A stretch of 64,000 nt of DNA from Escherichia phage OES_C-1, in the sequence record PQ553088. One strand, 5' to 3'. Within the stretch, counting starts at the first letter, position 1. Each line of letters opens with the position of its first letter. This document shows positions 1,535 to 52,043 of the stretch, piece after piece. The translations under genes and the position numbers were made by a program. The notes beneath the pieces were generated by a model. The model did no database searches and had not been told where the DNA came from. It saw only the letters and a list, made by a program, of their open reading frames with translations.

Positions 1535-4500
1535 ATGGCTACTTTAAAACAAATACAATTTAAAAGAAGCAAAACTGCAGGTCAACTTCCTGCTGCTTCA
1601 GTATTAGCCGAAGGTGAATTGGCTATAAACTTAAAAGATAAAACAATTTTCACAAAAGATGACTCAGGCAATGTTATAGAATTAGGTTTAAAATATGGAG
1701 GAACAATTGATGGTTCTTTAACTGTTAATGGAAATATAATTGGAAATTTAACAGGTAACGCTGCAACTGCAACGAAATTAAAAACAGCACGAAAAATTAA
1801 TGGTATATCTTTTGATGGGTCAAAGGACATTACCTTAACTCCATCTGACATAAATGTCAATAGCACAACATTTATAAAAAATAATGGCGAATTACCTACT
1901 GATGCTAATTTAGATACGTATGGGCCCATTGAAGAATATCTTGGTGTTTGGTCGAAATCTACTTCAACAAATGCGCAACCAGCAAATAAATTCCCAGAAG
2001 AAAATGCCGTAGGTGTACTAGAAGTGTTTGTGGCCGGCCAATTTGCTGGCACTCAGCGTTATACTGTAAGATCTGGTAACGTCTATATTCGTTCCTTATC
2101 TGCTAAATGGAATGGCGTCGATGGTCCATGGGGTGTGTGGCGTAATGTTCAAGCGTCAACTCGTCCACTTTCACAAACGATTGACCTTGATAGTTTGGGA
2201 GAATTAGAACATTGTGGCTTATGGCGAAACAGTTCAAGCGCAATCGCATCGTTTGACCGTCATTATCCAGAAGAAGGAACAGCCGCACAAGGATTTTTGG
2301 AAATTTTTGAGGGTGGTTTATACGCAAGAACTCAACGTTATACAACTAGATTTGGTGTTGTTTATACTCGCTGTCTTGCTGCTGCATGGGATGCATCTGC
2401 GCCTAAATGGGGACCGTGGCAACAAGTCGGTAATGTCACACCGGCGACTTTCTATGACGGAGACCTGAATGATTTTAAAGCTCCTGGGTTATATAACATT
2501 TTAGGCACTGACGCAGTTACTAACCGTCCAGTTGCAGAAGGCGTTCCGGTTGAGATGACCGCATTGCTTGAGGTTAAACAACGTGCTTCCGGTGGCGCTA
2601 TTTTCCAACGTTTCACTACCGCAGGAACGGGATCTACTACTCGCGGACGTATTTTTGAGCGTGCATATACTAATGGTGTTTGGGGTACATGGAACGAAGT
2701 ATACACATCTTATTCTCTACCAATTACTTTGGGTATGGGTGGTATTAAATCTAACTTAGCAGAGTTAGACTGGCAAACATTTGATTTTGTTCCTGGTAGT
2801 ATGTTTAGCGTTCCTTTGAACAAAATAAAGAACATGCCAGCAAATATGGATTGGGGGACGATTGATGGAAACTTGGTTATGTTTTCTGTCGGTCCTAGCG
2901 AACATACTAGCACAGGGCGTACTGTTCAGGTTTGGCGTGGTACTGTATCCCAGACAAACTATCGTTATTTTGTCGTTCGTGTATTCGGTAATTCAGGAAA
3001 TAGAACTTGCACAGTTCGTCGCGTTGTTCTTGAAGATGGTCGCCACAAATGGACAGCGCAGCAAGATTTTAATGGCGCAGTTAACTTCGGTGCTCCTACC
3101 AATTTTAACTCTACTGTTAACCTTAATAACACTACCACTTTTAAAACAGAAGTTAAATTTCGCTCATCTAATGCATTCCGTATGTATGGCGGAAAATTTG
3201 GTACAATTTTCCGTAATGATGGAGAGAGTCTTTATATTCTTTCTACCGACGAAGATGACCAAGATGGAAACTTTAATACAAATAGACCTTTCCGTTATGA
3301 ATTAAGAACTGGCGATGTTACTTTAGGTGGTGCTAGTGGTGCTAACGTTTTAAAATTAGAACGTGATTCTCTCACCGCATTTTTTGGTGGTGATATTAAC
3401 ATGAAAGGCTTGATGACTTTTGACGCCGGACGTTTAGGATCACGAGATTATTTTAAATTTAACCATTGGGGTGATAGTAATAATGCTCGTGATAACATCA
3501 TCCAGTTAGAAGATAGTCAAGGCGCTCATTTTTCCACTGAACGTACTTTAGCGACAGGTGCAATTAAAACTCGTTTCTTTGGCGAAACATTCACTGATGG
3601 TACATTATACCTAAATCAGATGAATAATAGCTCTGAACGATTCTCTATTAATAATTGGGGAAATTCAGAAGTTGGTCGCGCGGCAGTGATGGAAGTCAGT
3701 GATTCCAAAGGTTATCACTTCTATACGGAACGCAGGACAGATAACAGTTTGAATTTTGATGTTGCTGGCGCTTTTACCGTGCATGGATCTAGCGGGATCA
3801 CTATCAAAAACTCTGCTGGCGCTCGCCACATCTGGTTTAAAGATGATAGCGAATCGGAAAAGGCTGTTATCTGGGCTACAGATGAGGGTATTTTACATAT
3901 ACGAAATAATTATGGGGGTTCATTTAGTCATCACTTCCAGGGTGCAATGATTCTAGCGGGAGAGCGTGTTCCATATAATGGTGAATACGCTCTTATCCGT
4001 GGTAATATTTCAGGTGGTGCATGGGTAGACTGGCGAGAGCGTCCGGCTGGATTGTTGGTAGACTGTCAGGACTCACGAAATCAAGCATATAACATTTGGA
4101 AAGCTACTCATTGGGGCGAACAGCACCTTGCGGCGATGGGTGTTCATGCTGGCGGTGGTAATCCTCATGTTGTATTGCATGTGGGTGGGAATGATTATGC
4201 ATTTGCATCTAACGGTGATTTTACTGCTGGTGCTGCTGTATATTGTAACGACGTTTATACTCGTTCTGACCGTCGTCTGAAAATTAATGTTGAAGACTAC
4301 GAAGAGAATGCGGTGGATAAGGTAAATAAACTCAAAGTTAAAACCTATGATAAAGTTAAATCTCTTTCTGACCGCGAAGTTATCGGCCATGAGATTGGTA
4401 TTATCGCACAGGATTTGCAAGAAGTATTACAGGAAGCTGTTAGCACTTCTAGTGTCGGATCTCAGGATAACCCAGAAGAAATTTTAACAATTTCAAACTC

Positions 4501-4618
4501 TGCTGTGAACGCGCTTTTAATTAAGGCCATTCAGGAAATGAGTGAAGAAATTAAAGAATTGAAAACGCCTCTCTTTACTAAAATTGCTCGCAAAATTAGT
4601 AAATATTTTAAATTCTAA
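1535..4618 (+). CDS. 37: large distal long tail fibre subunit gp37
   Basis: 1027-aa ORF with repeated fibre motifs and His-rich HxH segments near the C-terminus, followed by a coiled, Lys/Glu-rich C-terminal tail resembling an intramolecular chaperone domain. Confidence 0.9.
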
Positions 4619-4624
4619 CAACAA

Positions 4625-4639
4625 GGGGGAAATGCCCCC
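4625..4639 (+). terminator. GC hairpin after gene 37 (weak terminator-like)
   Basis: ggggg-aaatg-ccccc then ttt; T-run is short. Confidence 0.3.
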
Positions 4640-4654
4640 TTTGGAGTATAAATT

Positions 4655-5437
4655 ATGGCAGTAGTTGGAGTTCCTGGCTGGATTGGAAGTTCAGCCGTAA
4701 ATGAAACGGGTCAGCGCTGGATGAGTCAAGCAGCTGGTCAATTAAGATTGGGTGTTCCTTGCTGGATGAGTCAATTTGCAGGTCGCTCAAGAGAAATTAT
4801 TCATACACTTGGAGCAGACCATAACTTCAATGGTCAATGGTTCCGAGATAGATGTTTTGAGGCAGGTAGTACACCTATAGTGTTTAATATCACTGGAGAT
4901 TTAGTATCATATTCTAAAGATGTTCCTTTATTCTTCATGTATGGAGATACACCAAATGAATATGTTCAGTTAAATATACATGGCGTAACGATGTATGGTC
5001 GTGGAGGTAATGGCGGTAGCAATAGTCCTGGCTCAGCTGGAGGTCATTGTATTCAAAACGATATTGGTGGGAGACTAAGAATTAATAATGGCGGAGCTAT
5101 TGCTGGCGGTGGCGGTGGCGGTGGCGGCGGATATTATTCTCCTTTTTCACAAATGAGATTGACCTTTGGCGGTGGTGGCGGTCGTCCGTTTGGCGCGCCG
5201 GGCGGATCTATTGATATGCAATCAGGAGCAACTGCTGGTACTATTTCTGCACCAGGCTCAGGGTCTGTGAACGGTATCTATAGCGGCGGGTCTGGTGGTG
5301 AAGTTGGCTCCGCAGGAGGTAGATGTAATATTCGTGGTCAAGGATATGAATACGATGGCGGTGCTGCTGGTTATGCCGTCATAGGGTCTACACCGACATG
5401 GCAAAACGTTGGAGCAATATATGGTCCAAGAGTATAA
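4655..5437 (+). CDS. 38: tail-fibre tip adhesin gp38, T2-type with glycine-rich motifs
   Basis: 260-aa ORF starting [12 protein letters not shown] with multiple poly-Gly blocks ([24 protein letters not shown]) separating short variable segments; unlike the 183-aa T4 gp38 chaperone. Confidence 0.85.
5105..5131 (+). repeat. (GGY)9 triplet repeat encoding poly-glycine inside gene 38
   Basis: ggcggtggcggtggcggtggcggcgga read directly. Confidence 0.7.
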
Positions 5438-5442
5438 TTTGA

Positions 5443-5450
5443 ATAAATAT
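5443..5450 (+). promoter_or_regulatory. possible late promoter variant (AATAAATA) upstream of t
   Basis: One mismatch to TATAAATA, about 18 nt upstream of the ATG with AAAGGAGGG RBS in between. Confidence 0.25.
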
Positions 5451-5467
5451 CCTTAAAAGGAGGGTCT

Positions 5468-6124
5468 ATGGCAGCACCTAGAATATCATTTTCGCCCTCT
5501 GATATTCTGTTGGGTGTTCTAGATCGCTTGTTCAAAGATAACGCTACCGGGAATGTTCTTGCTTCCCGGGTAGCTGTCGTAATTCTTTTATTTATGATGG
5601 CGATTGTTTGGTATAGGGGAGATAGTTTCTTTGAGTACTATAAGCAATCAAAGTATGAAACATACAGTGAAATTATTGAAAAGGAAAGAAATGCACGCTT
5701 TGAATCTGTCGCCCTGGAACAACTCCAGATAGTTCATATATCATCTGAGGCAGACTTTAGTGCGGTGTATTCTTTCCGCCCTAAAAACTTAAACTATTTT
5801 GTTGATATTATAGCATATGAAGGAAAATTACCTTCAACAATAAGCGAAAAATCACTTGGAGGATATCCTGTTGATAAAACTATGGATGAATATACAGTTC
5901 ATTTAAATGGACGTCATTATTATTCCGACTCAAAATTTGCTTTTTTGCCAACTAAAAAGCCTACTCCCGAAATAAATTACATGTACAGTTGTCCATATTT
6001 TAATTTGGATAATATCTATGCTGGAACAATAACCATGTACTGGTATAGAAATGATCATATAAGTAATGACCGCCTTGAATCAATATGTGCTCAGGCGGCC
6101 AGAATATTAGGAAGGGCTAAATAA
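5468..6124 (+). CDS. t: holin t
   Basis: 218-aa ORF starting MAAPRISFSPSDILLGVLDRLFKD with one N-proximal TM segment and a large C-terminal domain; position after gene 38. Confidence 0.9.
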   Translation: MAAPRISFSPSDILLGVLDRLFKDNATGNVLASRVAVVILLFMMAIVWYRGDSFFEYYKQSKYETYSEIIEKERNARFESVALEQLQIVHISSEADFSAVYSFRPKNLNYFVDIIAYEGKLPSTISEKSLGGYPVDKTMDEYTVHLNGRHYYSDSKFAFLPTKKPTPEINYMYSCPYFNLDNIYAGTITMYWYRNDHISNDRLESICAQAARILGRAK

Positions 6125-6397
6125 TTATTTGTTCGTATACATCTCTAGATATCGATATACACCCTCAAAACCCTCGTTGAATTCGTCGATGAGGGTTTTC
6201 TTATCTTCTTGAGTTAATTCAGAAACAATTTTACGGAATGAATTCTGATTTAACTTTCTACCTTCATGCGTTACTCCAATCTCATTCAGAAATGCAATAA
6301 AATTAGCACGATTCTCAACAATATCTTCTCTGGAAAATTTAATCAAAATAGACGCAACAGTAATAATTTCACGAACTGTATCAATGTTTTTATTCAT
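6125..6397 (-). CDS. asiA: anti-sigma70 factor AsiA
   Basis: 90-aa ORF starting MNKNIDTVREIITVASILIKFSRED; convergent with t as in T4. Confidence 0.9.
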   Translation of the reverse strand: MNKNIDTVREIITVASILIKFSREDIVENRANFIAFLNEIGVTHEGRKLNQNSFRKIVSELTQEDKKTLIDEFNEGFEGVYRYLEMYTNK

Positions 6398-36384: not shown

Positions 36385-36729
36385 TTAAAAGAATTTAAAT
36401 TTTTTCTTTGACCTTTTATTAAATGCATCTTGTAGTTGCATTGTAATACATTTTTCTACATGAGGAGCTAACTCAGCTTTTCTTTCTTGGTCAAGAACAG
36501 CAAAGTCCATTACGACTTTTCCATCAACCCAATCTAATTTTGTCACATACACAATGTGTGTAGAACCATCTTCTAGTTTAATGACAATCTCCTGGATAAC
36601 ATTTTCCATGGCAGATTTAATTATCTTAAGAGATTCATTAAAAAGACGTTCTTTTCTTTCTTCTTCCCCCTCCGAAGAGGGGGATTCGTCGATAATTTCT
36701 AGATCTAAATCTAAATCATCTTTATTCAT
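36385..36729 (-). CDS. 40: gp40-like protein
   Basis: Start placed at the ATG at 36729 (114 aa), which overlaps the uvsX stop; the track's 36747 start (120 aa) is the alternative. Confidence 0.45.
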   Translation of the reverse strand: MNKDDLDLDLEIIDESPSSEGEEERKERLFNESLKIIKSAMENVIQEIVIKLEDGSTHIVYVTKLDWVDGKVVMDFAVLDQERKAELAPHVEKCITMQLQDAFNKRSKKKFKFF

Positions 36730-37903
36730 TAAATTCTTCCATATCACTTAACTTATCTAGGTCAGTTTCTAAATCAGCTGCTGATTTACTTTTACTTTCT
36801 GGAGATTTAAATTTTTCAACCTTTGAGTTAATTAATTCATCAACTTCAGCTTCAACAATTTCATTACTATCAATAGCACCTAATTGATAAGCACGTTTAA
36901 TAGCATCTCGGAATGGTTGATGCTTAAATAAAGGACCCCAGAATGTAGTGCAATTGGTATCTTTTGCACGCCAAGATTTTTCTTCGCGAATCATCTCGCC
37001 AGTTTCTTCGTCAAGAAATTCACGAGCATACCAGCCATTTTTAGGTTTTACTACAAATCCTAATTCAAGAGCCATATCTAACAATCCAGAATAAGGATCG
37101 ATACCACCGTCAAATTTAACATCAATAAAGAATTTACTTTTTTCTTTGACGGTGCGAGATTTTTCTACATTTAGAACAAATTGATACCCCTGAAGATCAG
37201 AACCATCTTTAATCTGACGCTTACCGATAATGAATACAGTATCAGCCGAATACATTACGCCTGTACCACCTGTCATCACGGTTTTACTAAACATTTCAAT
37301 TGTTTCAATTGTATGGTTAACCGCAACGCATGGAATGTTTTTAATACTAAAATAAGGAGTAACAATACGGAATAATGACTTCAGTGATTTAGCACGAGTC
37401 ATATCTGCCACAGATTTTTCATTCAAGGCATCTTCCGTTTCTTTCTTAGAAGCCATATTACCGATTGAGTCGATGAATACAATAACTTTTTCACCGCGCT
37501 CAATAGCTTCAAGCTGATTCACCATATCAATTTTCAGTTGTTCAACTGACTGAATTGGCGTATGAATTACTCGTTCCGGGTCAACTCCCATGGATCGCAA
37601 ATAAGCTGGAGTAATACCAAATTCGCTATCATAGAATAAACAAACTGCGTCAGGATATTTGTTCAAATACGCCGCAACCATAGTCAAAGACATATTTGAT
37701 TTAAAGTGTTTAGAAGGACCTGCGAAAATAGTTAAACCGGACTGCATTCCACCATCAATCGCACCGGAAATAGCGATATTAAGCATTGGAATTTTTGTAC
37801 GGATTACATCCTTTTCATTAAAGAATTTAGATGTAGTCAGTTCAGCAGTCATTTTAGAAGTGGAAGCTTTAATCAAACGGGATTTTAAATCTGCAATAGA
37901 CAT
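36722..37903 (-). CDS. uvsX: UvsX recombinase (RecA-like)
   Basis: 393-aa ORF with Walker A GPSKHFKS and RecA-fold motifs. Confidence 0.9.
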   Translation of the reverse strand: MSIADLKSRLIKASTSKMTAELTTSKFFNEKDVIRTKIPMLNIAISGAIDGGMQSGLTIFAGPSKHFKSNMSLTMVAAYLNKYPDAVCLFYDSEFGITPAYLRSMGVDPERVIHTPIQSVEQLKIDMVNQLEAIERGEKVIVFIDSIGNMASKKETEDALNEKSVADMTRAKSLKSLFRIVTPYFSIKNIPCVAVNHTIETIEMFSKTVMTGGTGVMYSADTVFIIGKRQIKDGSDLQGYQFVLNVEKSRTVKEKSKFFIDVKFDGGIDPYSGLLDMALELGFVVKPKNGWYAREFLDEETGEMIREEKSWRAKDTNCTTFWGPLFKHQPFRDAIKRAYQLGAIDSNEIVEAEVDELINSKVEKFKSPESKSKSAADLETDLDKLSDMEEFNE

Positions 37904-37980
37904 TCATTTTTTCCATAGGCATCATTATATTTTCCTCACCGGTTAAAGATAGGGTAATTATAACACAATAAATTTAGGCA

Positions 37981-38823
37981 TTAATCAACTGCTATTGGAT
38001 GAATAGCATTAAACTTATGAAACGCTTCTGATTTTTCTTTGCGCGAAACACACATGCGAAGAACCTTTAATGGCTCGTCTTCTTCACCCAACGATTTTCG
38101 TTTTTCAATATTAGAAGTTTTCCAACGAGCTTGCTCTGGAAATTCTCTATTGATTTGCTCAAGCGCTCTATTATGTTTAGAATTACTACGAATTGAACTA
38201 CACCCGCCAGGAGCTTGTGATTTTCCAGATACAACCAAATATTTGAACAAGGCCAAATGCGGATAACCTTGATTAATTAAATTGAGAAATGCATACATAT
38301 CTTCGCATAAATCAATTTTTCCATACCCAATTTGTTCTGTCGTAAGTTTTCCAAGGTCATACCAGGTATTCGTGAATCCATATGAATTTTCACGATAATT
38401 ACCCCAAGATGAAGTAATTTTAAAAATTGGTAGACGAGCATGACCGTGATAATACCCGCAATCCATTGCATCCTCAACGTATTGAATTAATTCATAGAAT
38501 TGCTCACGAGTCAATTGATTGACTTTATCTACACGCCGTTTATCGTCTCTCTTTCGTATTGAACTCATACGAATAGTAGTATCATCATCGATCATCCAAA
38601 TTCGTTGACCTGCATACATATCAGTAATTGCTTTACGAGTTCCAGCAATTCCATTGACATCATCAGGAATAGTTATAATTTTAGCTCTAGACCCGTAAGC
38701 GTCATGATAAGCTTTTTCTTCATGTTCACGTACTACAATATGTGGTTCATAATCAGATGGAAACATATCAAGGGCAGAAACTGCCCTTACGCGTTGATAG
38801 CTTGGAATTACGAATTGAATCAT
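37981..38823 (-). CDS. putative glycosyltransferase at the beta-gt locus (possibly a T2/T6-type beta-glucosyl-HMC-alpha-glucosyltransferase)
   Basis: 280-aa ORF between uvsX and gene 42 with N-terminal beta-strand FVIPSY and an acidic IDDD motif. Confidence 0.45.
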   Translation of the reverse strand: MIQFVIPSYQRVRAVSALDMFPSDYEPHIVVREHEEKAYHDAYGSRAKIITIPDDVNGIAGTRKAITDMYAGQRIWMIDDDTTIRMSSIRKRDDKRRVDKVNQLTREQFYELIQYVEDAMDCGYYHGHARLPIFKITSSWGNYRENSYGFTNTWYDLGKLTTEQIGYGKIDLCEDMYAFLNLINQGYPHLALFKYLVVSGKSQAPGGCSSIRSNSKHNRALEQINREFPEQARWKTSNIEKRKSLGEEDEPLKVLRMCVSRKEKSEAFHKFNAIHPIAVD

Positions 38824-39461
38824 TTAAGTGCCTTACATTTGTCAAAATGGTATCTTGTCATATTTGGCCCACGTCCTTTTAGTCCGCAATGCGGACATAT
38901 TTTTTCTATCAAATTATGAGGTTTTCCTTTACGATTTTTAGACATCGTTTCTTTAATTATTTTAGCTTTTTCTGCGCCAAAAATTTCTTCATAAGTTTTA
39001 CCAGAATTTTCCTTTGCTCGATTTATAATTCCATATGCCTGTTCATTTTTACCATACATTGGATTACCTTCGCCTTTCATTCTTTTAGAATGATCAGGAC
39101 GCTTGATTCCACGAAAGGCATTTCCACATTTATATCTTTCTTCTGGAGATAGTTTCTTACCGTACATTCCATTTAATTTACCTGGAAAACTTCCTCCCCA
39201 CGCTTCATTCTTTAAATTATATGAATCCGGGCAATTGGCAGCATCTAAACAAGTTAAAATAATTTCTTCAACTTGTCTAAACATCGGTCCTTCATATAAT
39301 ATTTCTTTATTAAAGGATTTTATTCCATATTTCTTTTTAGCATGTTGCCAAACTACACCCGAACCATCATAATTCGGGTTGTGACCATCGTGACTTCCTA
39401 TATACCACTTTTTAGTTTTAGGATGTTTATACTTATAAACATGTGGCACATTTACTTCCAT
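38820..39461 (-). CDS. GIY-YIG homing endonuclease, Seg-like, free-standing
   Basis: 213-aa ORF with VYKYKHPKTKKWYIGSH (GIY-YIG) and repeated NPMYGK-type motifs; ends overlap both neighbours. Confidence 0.7.
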   Translation of the reverse strand: MEVNVPHVYKYKHPKTKKWYIGSHDGHNPNYDGSGVVWQHAKKKYGIKSFNKEILYEGPMFRQVEEIILTCLDAANCPDSYNLKNEAWGGSFPGKLNGMYGKKLSPEERYKCGNAFRGIKRPDHSKRMKGEGNPMYGKNEQAYGIINRAKENSGKTYEEIFGAEKAKIIKETMSKNRKGKPHNLIEKICPHCGLKGRGPNMTRYHFDKCKALK

Positions 39462-40192
39462 TTTCCAGTATAATCCTTTTTAGCAATATGAGTTTCACCG
39501 GTGTTCCACCAATGGTCAACTAAATAAAACTGATTTTCGTAAACATGAAGACTTCCAACGTTCCATATAATAGAACCTGCTTTATATTGCCGCGATGGGT
39601 CGCCTGCATTCAAATCAGATACTAATTTATCTAGTACGTATTTTTGCCATGCATAATCATTACGATAGCCTGCCCAGCAATCATTACTTCTCATGTTAAC
39701 CACTGCATTGACTTTCTTATCACGAATCAGGTACTGTACTGTATTCGTACACATGAAATCTGACATACCATCTTTGTTGTAGTCAAACTGCATGGATGGA
39801 CGAGTATAAATCATGATACCACGTCGAGAATCAGGATTTTGACCAAGTTCAGCTAAACACATGTCATACTGAGCATAGTTATCTTCTGACCAGATGGCCC
39901 AACCATAATTCGAGTTAATTTCGCCTTTAGAAGATGCTACCTGCTGCCAAATCTTTGGTGTTTCACCTGGAATATCTTTAACAAACAAGCTCTTAGATTT
40001 ATACCATTTAAGTTCACGCTGAATGTATTCATCATTAAGAGCGCCAAAAATAAATGGTTCATCTGCTACAAATGATGCGCCAATAATTTCAATAGTTTTA
40101 ACACCAGTTTTATCAACTACGAAATCTTTTTCCTTTAATGCAGTTCCCAAATAAAAACGGATTTCTTCAACTGTCATAGAGTCACTAATCAT
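39452..40192 (-). CDS. 42: dCMP hydroxymethylase gp42
   Basis: 246-aa ORF; size and position as T4 gp42. Confidence 0.85.
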   Translation of the reverse strand: MISDSMTVEEIRFYLGTALKEKDFVVDKTGVKTIEIIGASFVADEPFIFGALNDEYIQRELKWYKSKSLFVKDIPGETPKIWQQVASSKGEINSNYGWAIWSEDNYAQYDMCLAELGQNPDSRRGIMIYTRPSMQFDYNKDGMSDFMCTNTVQYLIRDKKVNAVVNMRSNDCWAGYRNDYAWQKYVLDKLVSDLNAGDPSRQYKAGSIIWNVGSLHVYENQFYLVDHWWNTGETHIAKKDYTGKWK

Positions 40193-40995: not shown

Positions 40996-41232
40996 TCAAA
41001 TGCAAGTAGTAATTACTCCAGTAGTGCTTATGCAGGTATTACCCATTTGCACACCTAAAGATCCATTTGTATTCACATGAAGATTATCATCAATTTTAAC
41101 TGATATTTTACCATTAGTGTGAATAACAGTGCTAGATTCAATCACAGGTTGAGTATCATTTTCAACACTAACAAATGGAACTGCTGCTAATGCAACTAAA
41201 CAAACTGCTAAGCATCCCATAACAATTTTCAT
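40996..41232 (-). CDS. putative secreted protein
   Basis: 78 aa from the internal ATG at 41232 (GGAGAA RBS); N-terminal signal peptide MKIVMGCLAVCLVALAAVPFVSV. Confidence 0.45.
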   Translation of the reverse strand: MKIVMGCLAVCLVALAAVPFVSVENDTQPVIESSTVIHTNGKISVKIDDNLHVNTNGSLGVQMGNTCISTTGVITTCI

Positions 41233-41265
41233 TTTATTCTCCAAATCCGTATTAGTTGATAGTTG

Positions 41266-50842: not shown

Positions 50843-52043
50843 ATTTTGTAATAATGTCAAACTGTTCTTTAAAGCAGAAGCTTGAATCTTGATGCTGATA
50901 CAAAAATTCATATGCTTTTTCTCGCTCACGGTCATAAAGAGCTCGGTCAGATGACAATTCTTTAATACGTTCAAATGTTGATTCCATGTCATTTTCATCA
51001 AACCAAATGATACCGCTATCATGCGAGGTCAAAGGAGTATTATCAACACGGAATTTTAAATTTTCGCCAGTAGATTTCCAAAATACCGGAATTGTTCCAC
51101 ATGCACCAAGCTCGAGATGAGTATATTCTAAAGAACGTTGTAGATATTTTTTGTCCAACTTACTCAGCTGATAACCAAATCCGGATTTACTCATGCGTTC
51201 AAGCATTTCGCTATTTACATAACGGTCAAGAATTTGCGTTGGCAAATTAGGAGCAATTTTAATTTGGTCTACTTGATGAAGACGATAATACTCGTATGGA
51301 ATTCCTTTTTCTTTAATAGGAATGAACGCTGGAGAACGTTCCAGACCTTCCATAATAGTACTTAGTCCTGCAGGTTTAAGATGCTTTTCATGAAAATCAA
51401 ACATCTGATAAAAACCTTTCCATGTAGTCGTACGACCAATCCAACGGTTGATATTCATGTTAATTTCAGAAACATCTTTCCAGTAGGTTGACCGAACCTT
51501 CGCAATATCCATAGGAGGCTGAAAGTTATATACGGTCGGCGCTTCTTCAATATCATCAAACAGAGAAACTGTTTCTGGATACCATTCTTTCATCAGAACT
51601 TTATTAAAATCACCATTATCAGAATGGCTAAAAATAACATCAGCTCGACGAACAGTTTCTTCTAATCCCAAATTTCGACGCAAAGAAAGAGAAGAATGGT
51701 CATGTTGATAAACTACAACACGAACAGAAGGTTTAATGTTATCAATAATTTTTTTATAGTTATTAATAGTGTCTTCTTCAACCGAAGTAGCAGGAACTGA
51801 ATTAATAATTAGAATATCACAATCATTTACCAGCTTAAGTGTTTTATCATATTCTTTTGCCAATAAAACCGGAATTGAAAATGATTTATAATCATGCGCG
51901 CAATTACGAGTAAATGATTTATCTTTAGCATAAACCAAAGTTACTTCATGACCATTTTTAATAAACCAATCACGCTGCTCAAGAGAAAATTTAGTTACAC
52001 CACAACCTTCAAGACCTCGAGCCATAAAAATACATACTTTCAT
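50841..52043 (-). CDS. agt: alpha-glucosyltransferase (hmC DNA glucosylation)
   Basis: 400-aa ORF starting MKVCIFMARGLEGCGVTKFSLEQRDWFIKNGHEV. Confidence 0.85.
   Translation of the reverse strand: MKVCIFMARGLEGCGVTKFSLEQRDWFIKNGHEVTLVYAKDKSFTRNCAHDYKSFSIPVLLAKEYDKTLKLVNDCDILIINSVPATSVEEDTINNYKKIIDNIKPSVRVVVYQHDHSSLSLRRNLGLEETVRRADVIFSHSDNGDFNKVLMKEWYPETVSLFDDIEEAPTVYNFQPPMDIAKVRSTYWKDVSEINMNINRWIGRTTTWKGFYQMFDFHEKHLKPAGLSTIMEGLERSPAFIPIKEKGIPYEYYRLHQVDQIKIAPNLPTQILDRYVNSEMLERMSKSGFGYQLSKLDKKYLQRSLEYTHLELGACGTIPVFWKSTGENLKFRVDNTPLTSHDSGIIWFDENDMESTFERIKELSSDRALYDREREKAYEFLYQHQDSSFCFKEQFDIITK

Follow-up and report, generated by a model that had tools for sequence, protein, structure and literature searches.

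Linkage of a seg-like GIY-YIG endonuclease gene to gene 42, rather than to the adjacent T2/T6-type glucosyltransferase gene, in Escherichia phage OES_C-1

Which glucosyltransferase occupies the slot between gene 42 and uvsX in Escherichia phage OES_C-1, and does the homing endonuclease gene beside it serve to move that enzyme from phage to phage? The locus lies in a 64,000-nucleotide stretch of the phage genome (record PQ553088; the whole stretch is referred to here as the window). The initial annotation had placed two open reading frames (ORFs) where T4 has its beta-glucosyltransferase gene (beta-gt): one of 280 amino acids, taken for a different glycosyltransferase, and one of 213 amino acids, taken for a GIY-YIG endonuclease that may mobilise the locus. 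Both were confirmed in the ORF listing, at 37981..38823 and 38820..39461 on the minus strand, and their family matches identify them as genuine genes rather than chance frames: PHROG 842 ('beta-glucosyl-HMC-alpha-glucosyltransferase'; HMC or hmC, hydroxymethylcytosine) for the 280-amino-acid protein (E=1.3e-87) and PHROG 314 ('homing endonuclease') for the 213-amino-acid protein (E=1.8e-31). The gene order on the minus strand is 43 - imm.1 - imm - 42.1 - 42 - [213 amino acids] - [280 amino acids] - uvsX - 40 - 41. By its sequence the source of the window belongs to Tequatrovirus, and the 2-kb stretch round the locus is 100% identical to Escherichia phages OES_C-2 and OES_C-3 and 96-97% identical to dozens of further T-even-type phages. 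The locus is the standard T2/T6-type order of gene 42, the glucosyltransferase gene ba-gt and uvsX, plus a selfish gene between 42 and ba-gt; as such it is ordinary, and the inserted gene is an uncharacterised representative of a familiar selfish class. The overall reading favoured here, to which we assign a probability of about 70%, is that a T2/T6-type glucosyltransferase gene stands beside an endonuclease gene that spreads by intronless homing through a cut in gene 42, the site being deduced from linkage.

The linkage of the endonuclease gene was examined in a within-genus comparison of five Tequatrovirus loci that carry it and six that do not, all with ba-gt and about 4.6 kb aligned, together with database-wide counts. 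All but one of the 36 fixed differences between carriers and non-carriers fall at window 39461-39691, in the last 232 nucleotides of gene 42, and none falls in ba-gt or uvsX. Divergence between the two groups reaches 20.6% in this tract (39462..39691, minus strand, as delimited by fixed differences and divergence), whereas the 5' part of gene 42 stands at 4.2% and ba-gt at 4.7%; the flanks show the same values as are found within the groups, which for ba-gt are 5.2% and 4.4%. Carriers vary least among themselves in the endonuclease gene (1.7%) and in the tract (2.8%), the flanks lying at 4.4-5.2%, as would be expected if gene and tract had both spread recently into varied backgrounds. Database-wide, 491 records hold the 3' part of gene 42, and the carrier-type tract allele is present at an identity of at least 95% in 86 of them.

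Gene 42 (39452..40192, minus strand) encodes deoxycytidine monophosphate (dCMP) hydroxymethylase, an enzyme of thymidylate-synthase fold (Pfam Thymidylat_synt, E=6.8e-15), and the window gp42 is 93% identical to those of T2, T4 and T6. Where these three have M-R-S-N-D-V-V-F-G-F-R-N-D-Y and V-Y-S-R-H, carrier gp42 has N-M-R-S-N-D-C-W-A-G-Y-R-N-D-Y and V-Y-E-N-Q. The first of these motifs lies at the distal edge of the tract (R-S-N-D-C-W-A-G-Y, codons 168-176, 39665..39691, minus strand), where even the unchanged residues R168 and S169 are synonymously recoded (AGA AGT in carriers, CGC TCA in non-carriers); the second forms another dense allele-specific patch at codons 219-221 (39530..39539, minus strand; ENQ in carriers, SRH in non-carriers). 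These two densest patches of the tract are nearer to the carrier allele of the Klebsiella phage genus Jiaodavirus (79-80%) than to T2 (70-76%). The comparison suggests that the tract entered together with the endonuclease from a diverged donor.

The same arrangement was found in two further clades. In T2, gene 42 and ba-gt overlap by ATGA; at this point the window has a clean insertion of 632 bp, in which the ATGA coupling to ba-gt is recreated. In the Klebsiella phages of Jiaodavirus the endonuclease is 70% identical and the gene order is 42 - seg - ba-gt - uvsX, the indel measuring about 625 bp; gene 42 overlaps ba-gt in the non-carriers of that genus. Jiaodavirus carriers and non-carriers are 98-99% identical up to about nucleotide 500 of gene 42 and divergent from the MRSND codons on, carriers having CWAGY with QNQ and non-carriers VVFGY with ERH or SRH. 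The third clade is uncultured and T4-like, its gene 42 sharing only about 61% identity with that of the window; here one contig (L020) differs from two others (L021/L023) by a 668-bp indel containing the endonuclease gene. There the pattern is inverted at the same boundary: from the MRSND codons to the stop the contigs are near-identical, and upstream they differ by about 6-10%. The presence/absence indels are thus precise in all three clades and the endonuclease gene behaves like a mobile element, with a one-sided linkage to the 3' tract of gene 42 that has a common boundary in the three.

Orthologues of the endonuclease (58-62% identity) also occur directly after gene 42 in contigs with no detected downstream homologue of TAGT, the family of the ba-gt product. 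As 35 of the 36 fixed differences lie in gene 42, orthologues follow that gene without TAGT and the boundary recurs in three clades, the endonuclease appears to be tied to gene 42 and not to the glucosyltransferase; gene 42 is the conserved gene that always stands beside this endonuclease lineage. We infer that the 3' tract of gene 42 is a probable co-conversion tract that also constitutes the immune allele.

How widely, and in what condition, the endonuclease gene occurs was taken from the database counts. It is present at a protein identity of at least 95% in about 77 phage records, to be compared with the 491 records that hold the 3' part of gene 42, and in all of them it lies at the junction of 42 and ba-gt; of about 78 copies, 73 are of full length, with an identity of 99% or more. 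Damaged copies were also found. In Shinka (L002, MZ502379), at about 2700 of that locus (window 38899-38904), a +1 frameshift in the run of six adenines (A6 to A7) that immediately precedes the zinc-finger codons removes the finger, and phages REP3 and BCH953P2 give two-piece matches to the gene; the frameshift and the two-piece matches could reflect sequencing error, decay or slippage-prone switching. Only the last 30 or so endonuclease codons remain downstream of gene 42 in vB_KpnM_GF and in three further loci (L072-L074). In vB_KpnM_GF (L007, MK421971; 2990-3100) a deletion fuses gene 42, cut after ...IIWNA at about codon 212, to this zinc-finger remnant of about 30 codons. The fusion leaves this phage with a truncated form of the essential dCMP hydroxymethylase; the record is described as a partial genome and the fusion may be an assembly artefact, and if real it could be a product of imprecise repair.

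A different state is seen in ERS-1 (L088, PP337211, flagged UNVERIFIED), which at 2500-2760 has the carrier-type gene 42 tract (CWAGY, ENQ) and no endonuclease gene, and which switches to T2-type sequence about 40 nucleotides before the gene 42 stop; the record has apparent indel errors. Loci corresponding to every stage of a homing cycle can therefore be seen: empty and presumably sensitive in T2, T4 and T6, occupied in the window, empty with a carrier-type tract in ERS-1 and L021/L023, and degenerate in Shinka, vB_KpnM_GF and L072-L074.

By family and domains the 213-amino-acid protein is assigned as an intact, free-standing, seg-like GIY-YIG homing endonuclease, its activity being predicted. 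The VYKY, WYIGSH and NUMOD3-type motifs to which the initial annotation had pointed are present, the protein comprising a GIY-YIG-like domain (residues 7-89), the NUMOD3-type motifs NGMYGK and NPMYGK, and a CCHC finger (C189, C192, H205, C209). A search recovered 69 homologues, of which 31, down to about 30% identity, were aligned. Conserved among these 31 are the GIY-like VYK(Y), the (W)YIG(S) and Y-x-GSG motifs, E65, Y81-N82 and two NUMOD3-like G-x-x-N-x-M-x-GK motifs, and the C189-x2-C192...H205-x3-C209 finger is invariant. The profile built from the alignment matches the catalytic domain of I-TevI (1LN0) over residues 7-89 (E=0.0033), and among its members 12 of 31 match PF19835 (SegE_GIY-YIG), 6 of 31 PF01541 and 20 of 31 NUMOD3. 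The protein itself matches TIGR01453 ('group I intron endonuclease') weakly, under the cut-off of that model (E=1.5e-5), and a PDB search with the single sequence returned only a spurious ABC-transporter match. The ORF overlaps the start of the 280-amino-acid ORF by 4 nucleotides (ATGA) and the gene 42 stop by 10. Overlap with both neighbours, as first described, holds for the ORF as called; if translation starts at the in-frame GTG at 39449, an alternative that fits the N-termini of homologues better, the overlap with gene 42 disappears.

The closest T4 proteins are SegC (35%, residues 7-138) and SegA (37%, residues 22-123). Most records label the protein 'hypothetical protein', and literature searches found no paper that names or characterises it. 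The labels 'SegD' (LR746311) and 'segE' (MZ502379) were rejected, since similarity to T4 proteins is greatest for SegC and SegA, reaches 35-37% and is confined to the N-terminal domain, and since the position differs: T4 segD lies between genes 23 and 24 and segE between inh and uvsW (PMC2988022 Table 1). With the T4 Seg enzymes (SegA-SegG) the protein shares a free-standing gene, a size of about 210-220 amino acids, co-orientation with its neighbours, a start that overlaps the upstream gene, insertion between conserved genes and an N-terminal GIY-YIG-type domain. It also shares with them a linked divergent tract in a flanking essential gene, of the kind left by distant-site cleavage with co-conversion (PMC2988022). 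However, it is orthologous to none of them, the junction of 42 and ba-gt holds no T4 seg gene (PMC2988022 Table 1), and its C-terminal half, with the CPHC...H..C zinc finger, is unmatched in SegC and SegA.

Under the favoured reading of intronless homing, the 213-amino-acid enzyme would, in a mixed infection, cut gene 42 of an endonuclease-free relative. The cut would fall most probably at or next to codons 167-176, in the MRSND-VVFG(F/Y)-RNDY motif, about 205-230 bp upstream of the insertion point, and the distal tract edge in the window marks the candidate recognition or cleavage position in endonuclease-free genomes. The break would be repaired from the endonuclease-carrying genome, so that the last 230 or so base pairs of gene 42 (the CWAGY / ENQ allele) and the endonuclease gene would be copied in together, and the carrier allele, differing at the site, would be immune. 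T4 Seg enzymes such as SegF and SegG provide the precedent: they cleave hundreds of base pairs from their own genes, the interval is obligatorily co-converted, and this distant-site cleavage underlies T2 marker exclusion (PMC2988022).

The candidate target codons encode the RSND...RNDY catalytic motif of gp42; D179 is described for T4 gp42 as the cytosine-specificity residue. I-TevI and I-BmoI cut thymidylate synthase genes at active-site codons. The window enzyme resembles these two in its GIY-YIG catalytic domain, in a modular DNA-binding part made up of NUMOD3 and a zinc finger, and in a presumed target within the catalytic-motif codons of an enzyme of thymidylate-synthase fold. It differs in being free-standing rather than intron-encoded and in addressing dCMP hydroxymethylase instead of thymidylate synthase; furthermore, I-TevI cuts 23-25 nucleotides from its insertion point, compared with a presumed distance of about 200 bp here. 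A wider proposition, which we put forward tentatively and rate at slightly less than an even chance, is that one lineage of free-standing GIY-YIG enzymes has followed the gene for dCMP hydroxymethylase through three or more T4-like clades of genus level by targeting the RSND...RNDY codons. Carriers would owe their immunity to a coordinated exchange of five codons next to the active site, VVFG[F/Y] becoming xWAGY. The lineage would be a free-standing counterpart of I-TevI and I-BmoI in their relation to thymidylate synthase, each homing event rewriting part of an essential enzyme and, against T4-type phages, replacing beta-gt and segA by ba-gt.

Three other explanations of the locus were weighed. 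The endonuclease might home into, or be coupled to, the glucosyltransferase cassette and be the vehicle that moves ba-gt between phages, as the initial annotation had proposed for the locus. The endonuclease gene does adjoin ba-gt, to which it is translationally coupled by the ATGA overlap, ba-gt is adjacent in 77 of about 78 carrier records, and Jiaodavirus shares the order; in T4, where beta-gt is the alternative, the GIY-YIG gene is a different one, segA, and it stands at the opposite flank of the glucosyltransferase gene. But ba-gt has no fixed differences, its between-group divergence does not rise above the within-group values, the linkage is confined to a tract in gene 42, clades with no TAGT homologue detected downstream still have orthologues following gene 42, and the endonuclease is absent from about 395 of about 472 records that carry ba-gt. 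The proposal is not supported, and this explanation is considered very unlikely. One class of cross could still give carry-over: T4-type genomes have the presumed sensitive gene 42 allele, and past the junction of 42 and the glucosyltransferase gene they are non-homologous to the window until uvsX. Repair there would have to run from gene 42 to uvsX, the next homology, and homing would of necessity exchange beta-gt and segA for the endonuclease gene and ba-gt. Movement of ba-gt into a T4-type genome is thus plausible, and would be necessary only in such crosses, as a by-product and not as the target. In T4, segA lies between uvsX and beta-gt (L004, 4571-5236), where the window (36722-37980) has only a 77-nucleotide spacer beyond uvsX (36722..37903, minus strand; Pfam T4_UVSX_C, E=4.7e-39), the conserved downstream flank; the segA product cuts uvsX (PMC2988022). 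With segA beside uvsX and the 213-amino-acid gene beside gene 42, each of the two alternative glucosyltransferase cassettes has a homing endonuclease gene of its own alongside, on opposite sides, and each endonuclease would be directed at the conserved gene next to it.

The remaining two explanations concern the endonuclease itself, and several of the observations from which they draw also weigh against homing through a gene 42 cut. Taken alone, the 213-amino-acid protein falls under the Pfam thresholds for GIY-YIG and NUMOD3 (18.1 bits against a 20.4-bit cut-off for NUMOD3). The catalytic arginine of I-TevI, R27, has no clear counterpart in the family, aligning to a gap or insertion in the profile alignment, with a conserved K44 nearby. 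No promoter of the gene's own was detected; the T4 late-promoter consensus TATAAATA is missing from the neighbourhood of the locus and shows no enrichment in the window. Together with the damaged copies described above, these features could mean that the ORF is an inactive or decaying relic, or has been domesticated for a different role, that in either case it is inherited vertically, and that the gene 42 tract is a leftover of an old transfer. We regard this as quite unlikely, given the near-identity of most full-length copies, the retention of the CCHC finger and of residues of the catalytic domain in all the range of the 31 homologues, which extends to about 30% identity, the presence/absence polymorphism in three clades, and a diversity in the gene so far below that of its flanks, which fits recent spread into diverse backgrounds. 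Then there is the position of the cut, which was placed from linkage patterns alone. The xWAGY motif occurs in 12 of 12 carriers, 4 of 4 remnant loci and 21 of 72 non-carriers, an association that Fisher's test, which ignores phylogeny, puts at 3e-6; the motif, being present in 21 endonuclease-free loci, cannot serve as a marker of the endonuclease. The chief reservation is that conserved codons are natural crossover points between diverged genomes, so that the shared boundary could mark recombination rather than cleavage and does not by itself prove the cut position. An active enzyme might then have its target at codons 219-221, at the junction of 42 and ba-gt or elsewhere in gene 42, the boundary being merely the nearest stretch capable of crossover. 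In keeping with this, no nucleotides of the region are more conserved than the MRSND and RNDYAWQ codons, which are obvious recombination points, the patch at 39530-39539 is equally allele-specific and lies about 70-80 bp from the insertion point, the tract is a mosaic whose middle part is T2-like, and ERS-1 combines a carrier-type tract, lacking the endonuclease, with a switch of type only near the gene 42 stop. However, three clades whose gene 42 sequences differ by as much as 40% share this boundary, near-identity in the uncultured clade begins exactly there, and cleavage by Seg enzymes hundreds of base pairs from their own genes comes with obligatory co-conversion (PMC2988022). A target elsewhere is therefore held to be unlikely, and a cut at or near the catalytic-motif codons is preferred.

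What, then, is the enzyme encoded next to the endonuclease? The 280-amino-acid protein is identified by sequence and by its predicted structure as a T2/T6-type beta-glucosyl-HMC-alpha-glucosyltransferase of GT-A fold. Its full-length identity with the proteins encoded at the corresponding place in T2 (AP018813) and T6 (MH550421) is 97%, with nine substitutions relative to T2, and it scores 44.5 bits against Pfam TAGT (PF20691; gathering cut-off 27.5 bits) over residues 3-207. Searching 1.84 billion representatives with a profile recovered 2282 relatives. When 113 of these were aligned, R11, D80, D175, G186 and G207 proved invariant and D79 and D81 at least 90% conserved, within the sequence WMIDDDTTI at residues 76-84, which supplies the DxD motif (D79-D81). 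The single-sequence AlphaFold model was unusable (predicted local distance difference test, pLDDT, 41.7) and was replaced by an AlphaFold2 run on the 113-sequence alignment, which gave a mean pLDDT of 94.8, a beta-alpha-beta N-terminus and GT-A/GT2 folds as top structural matches. A PDB search with the single sequence gave no match, and with the profile only a non-significant GT2 match (9jma, E=0.11). T4 beta-gt has no tblastn match anywhere in the 64-kb window, the part of the genome that was searched. The Rossmann-like N-terminus and IDDD motif reported initially, and the T2/T6-type assignment in preference to beta-gt, are all supported by these results.

The protein would be expected to transfer a second glucose from uridine diphosphate glucose (UDP-glucose), in beta-1,6 linkage, onto alpha-glucosyl-hmC, giving gentiobiosyl-hmC, by analogy with T2 and T6. 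The alpha-glucosyl-hmC that ba-gt extends is made by alpha-glucosyltransferase (alpha-gt), which therefore belongs to the same modification pathway, and whose gene was found about 12 kb away (50844..52043, minus strand; tblastn with T4 alpha-gt, 91.5% identity over all 400 amino acids). As the genotype is alpha-gt plus TAGT, the phage DNA is predicted to carry a T2/T6-like mixture of alpha-glucosyl-hmC and gentiobiosyl-hmC. This genotype yields both sugars in T2/T6 and in recently analysed Tequatroviruses (PMC13216743, PMC13390438, PMC2993671), and gentiobiosyl-hmC has been measured by mass spectrometry in related phages with alpha-gt and TAGT (PMC13390438).

From T2/T6 ba-gt, with which it shares a length of 280 amino acids, the slot between gene 42 and uvsX, an ATGA overlap with the upstream gene, the GT-A fold with DxD motif and a partner alpha-gt in the genome, the window gene differs in nothing substantial other than its upstream neighbour, which is the endonuclease gene and not gene 42. 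T4 beta-gt (PF09198) occupies the syntenic slot and likewise acts on hmC DNA, but it has a GT-B fold (PMC13216743), no sequence similarity to the window protein, and free hmC as its acceptor instead of the alpha-glucosyl-hmC used by TAGT. The enzyme in the slot is thus indeed different from that of T4, although its unusualness had been overstated: the 280-amino-acid protein is found at an identity of at least 90% in about 472 phage records and at 60-80% in 203 more, compared with 29 records for T4-type beta-gt at 90% or above. TAGT at this locus is the majority state, with T4 the exception, and this part of the annotation is correct but already known; that TAGT stands in the beta-gt slot of T4, that its fold is GT-A and that T4 is exceptional have all been published (PMC13216743, PMC13390438, PMC2993671).

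Several observations on the glucosyltransferase slot were made in passing. T6 is the phage richest in gentiobiosyl-hmC. In its record (L003, MH550421; 3924-3980) the ba-gt frame has an in-frame TAG at codon 10 (TAT TAG CGT; TAT CAA CGC in the window), and the annotated ba-gt (ggt) coding sequence therefore starts at M20 and encodes 261 amino acids; the TAG may have arisen by mutation in this strain or by sequencing error, or may indicate that the enzyme can do without its N-terminal strand. Five IMG/VR loci (L013-L017, at about 4235-6140) have a TAGT homologue (63-65%) and a homologue of T4-type beta-gt (49-50%) in tandem between gene 42 and uvsX, an arrangement noted for CC31 (PMC2993671), and the T4 and T2/T6 states may each have arisen by loss from a two-gene ancestor. 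Between ba-gt and uvsX, Klebsiella phage ValerieMcCarty03 (L006, 4489-4710) has a cysteine-rich ORF of 73 amino acids annotated 'putative glucosyl-transferase'. This Jiaodavirus ORF was considered as a beta-gt remnant and rejected, having no detectable similarity to T4 or CC31 beta-gt; the annotation looks unfounded.

Two further differences lie upstream. Round codons 13-17 of gene 42 (window 40142-40156) the window encodes I-R-F-Y-L-G-T-A-L, where T2, T4, T6 and Shinka have I-R-L-H-L-G-L-A-L and vB_SsoM_113 has a third version; this substitution cluster is unrelated to endonuclease status. Between imm.1 and gene 43 (40996-41244, minus strand) there is an ORF of 82 amino acids with a hydrophobic, signal-like N-terminus. 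Its T2 counterpart, matching in size and place, is mis-annotated as 'tail tape measure protein', and T4 and T6 list no gene there, making this another small indel-type difference among T-even phages.

The genotype of alpha-gt and TAGT leads from a predicted gentiobiosyl-hmC DNA to the likely behaviour of the phage towards glucose-directed defences (GmrSD/BrxU, Brig1). The glucosyltransferase half of the locus is in this way useful for annotation, while being already published; what is new is an uncharacterised seg-like endonuclease with a specific, testable prediction of its target in gene 42. If the prediction is true, the catalogue of T-even marker exclusion would extend to the gene for hmC synthesis, and the sharp dimorphism of the gene 42 3' allele in hundreds of Tequatrovirus and Jiaodavirus genomes would be explained. 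The locus would then also be a natural case of a homing endonuclease exchanging residues next to the active site of an enzyme.

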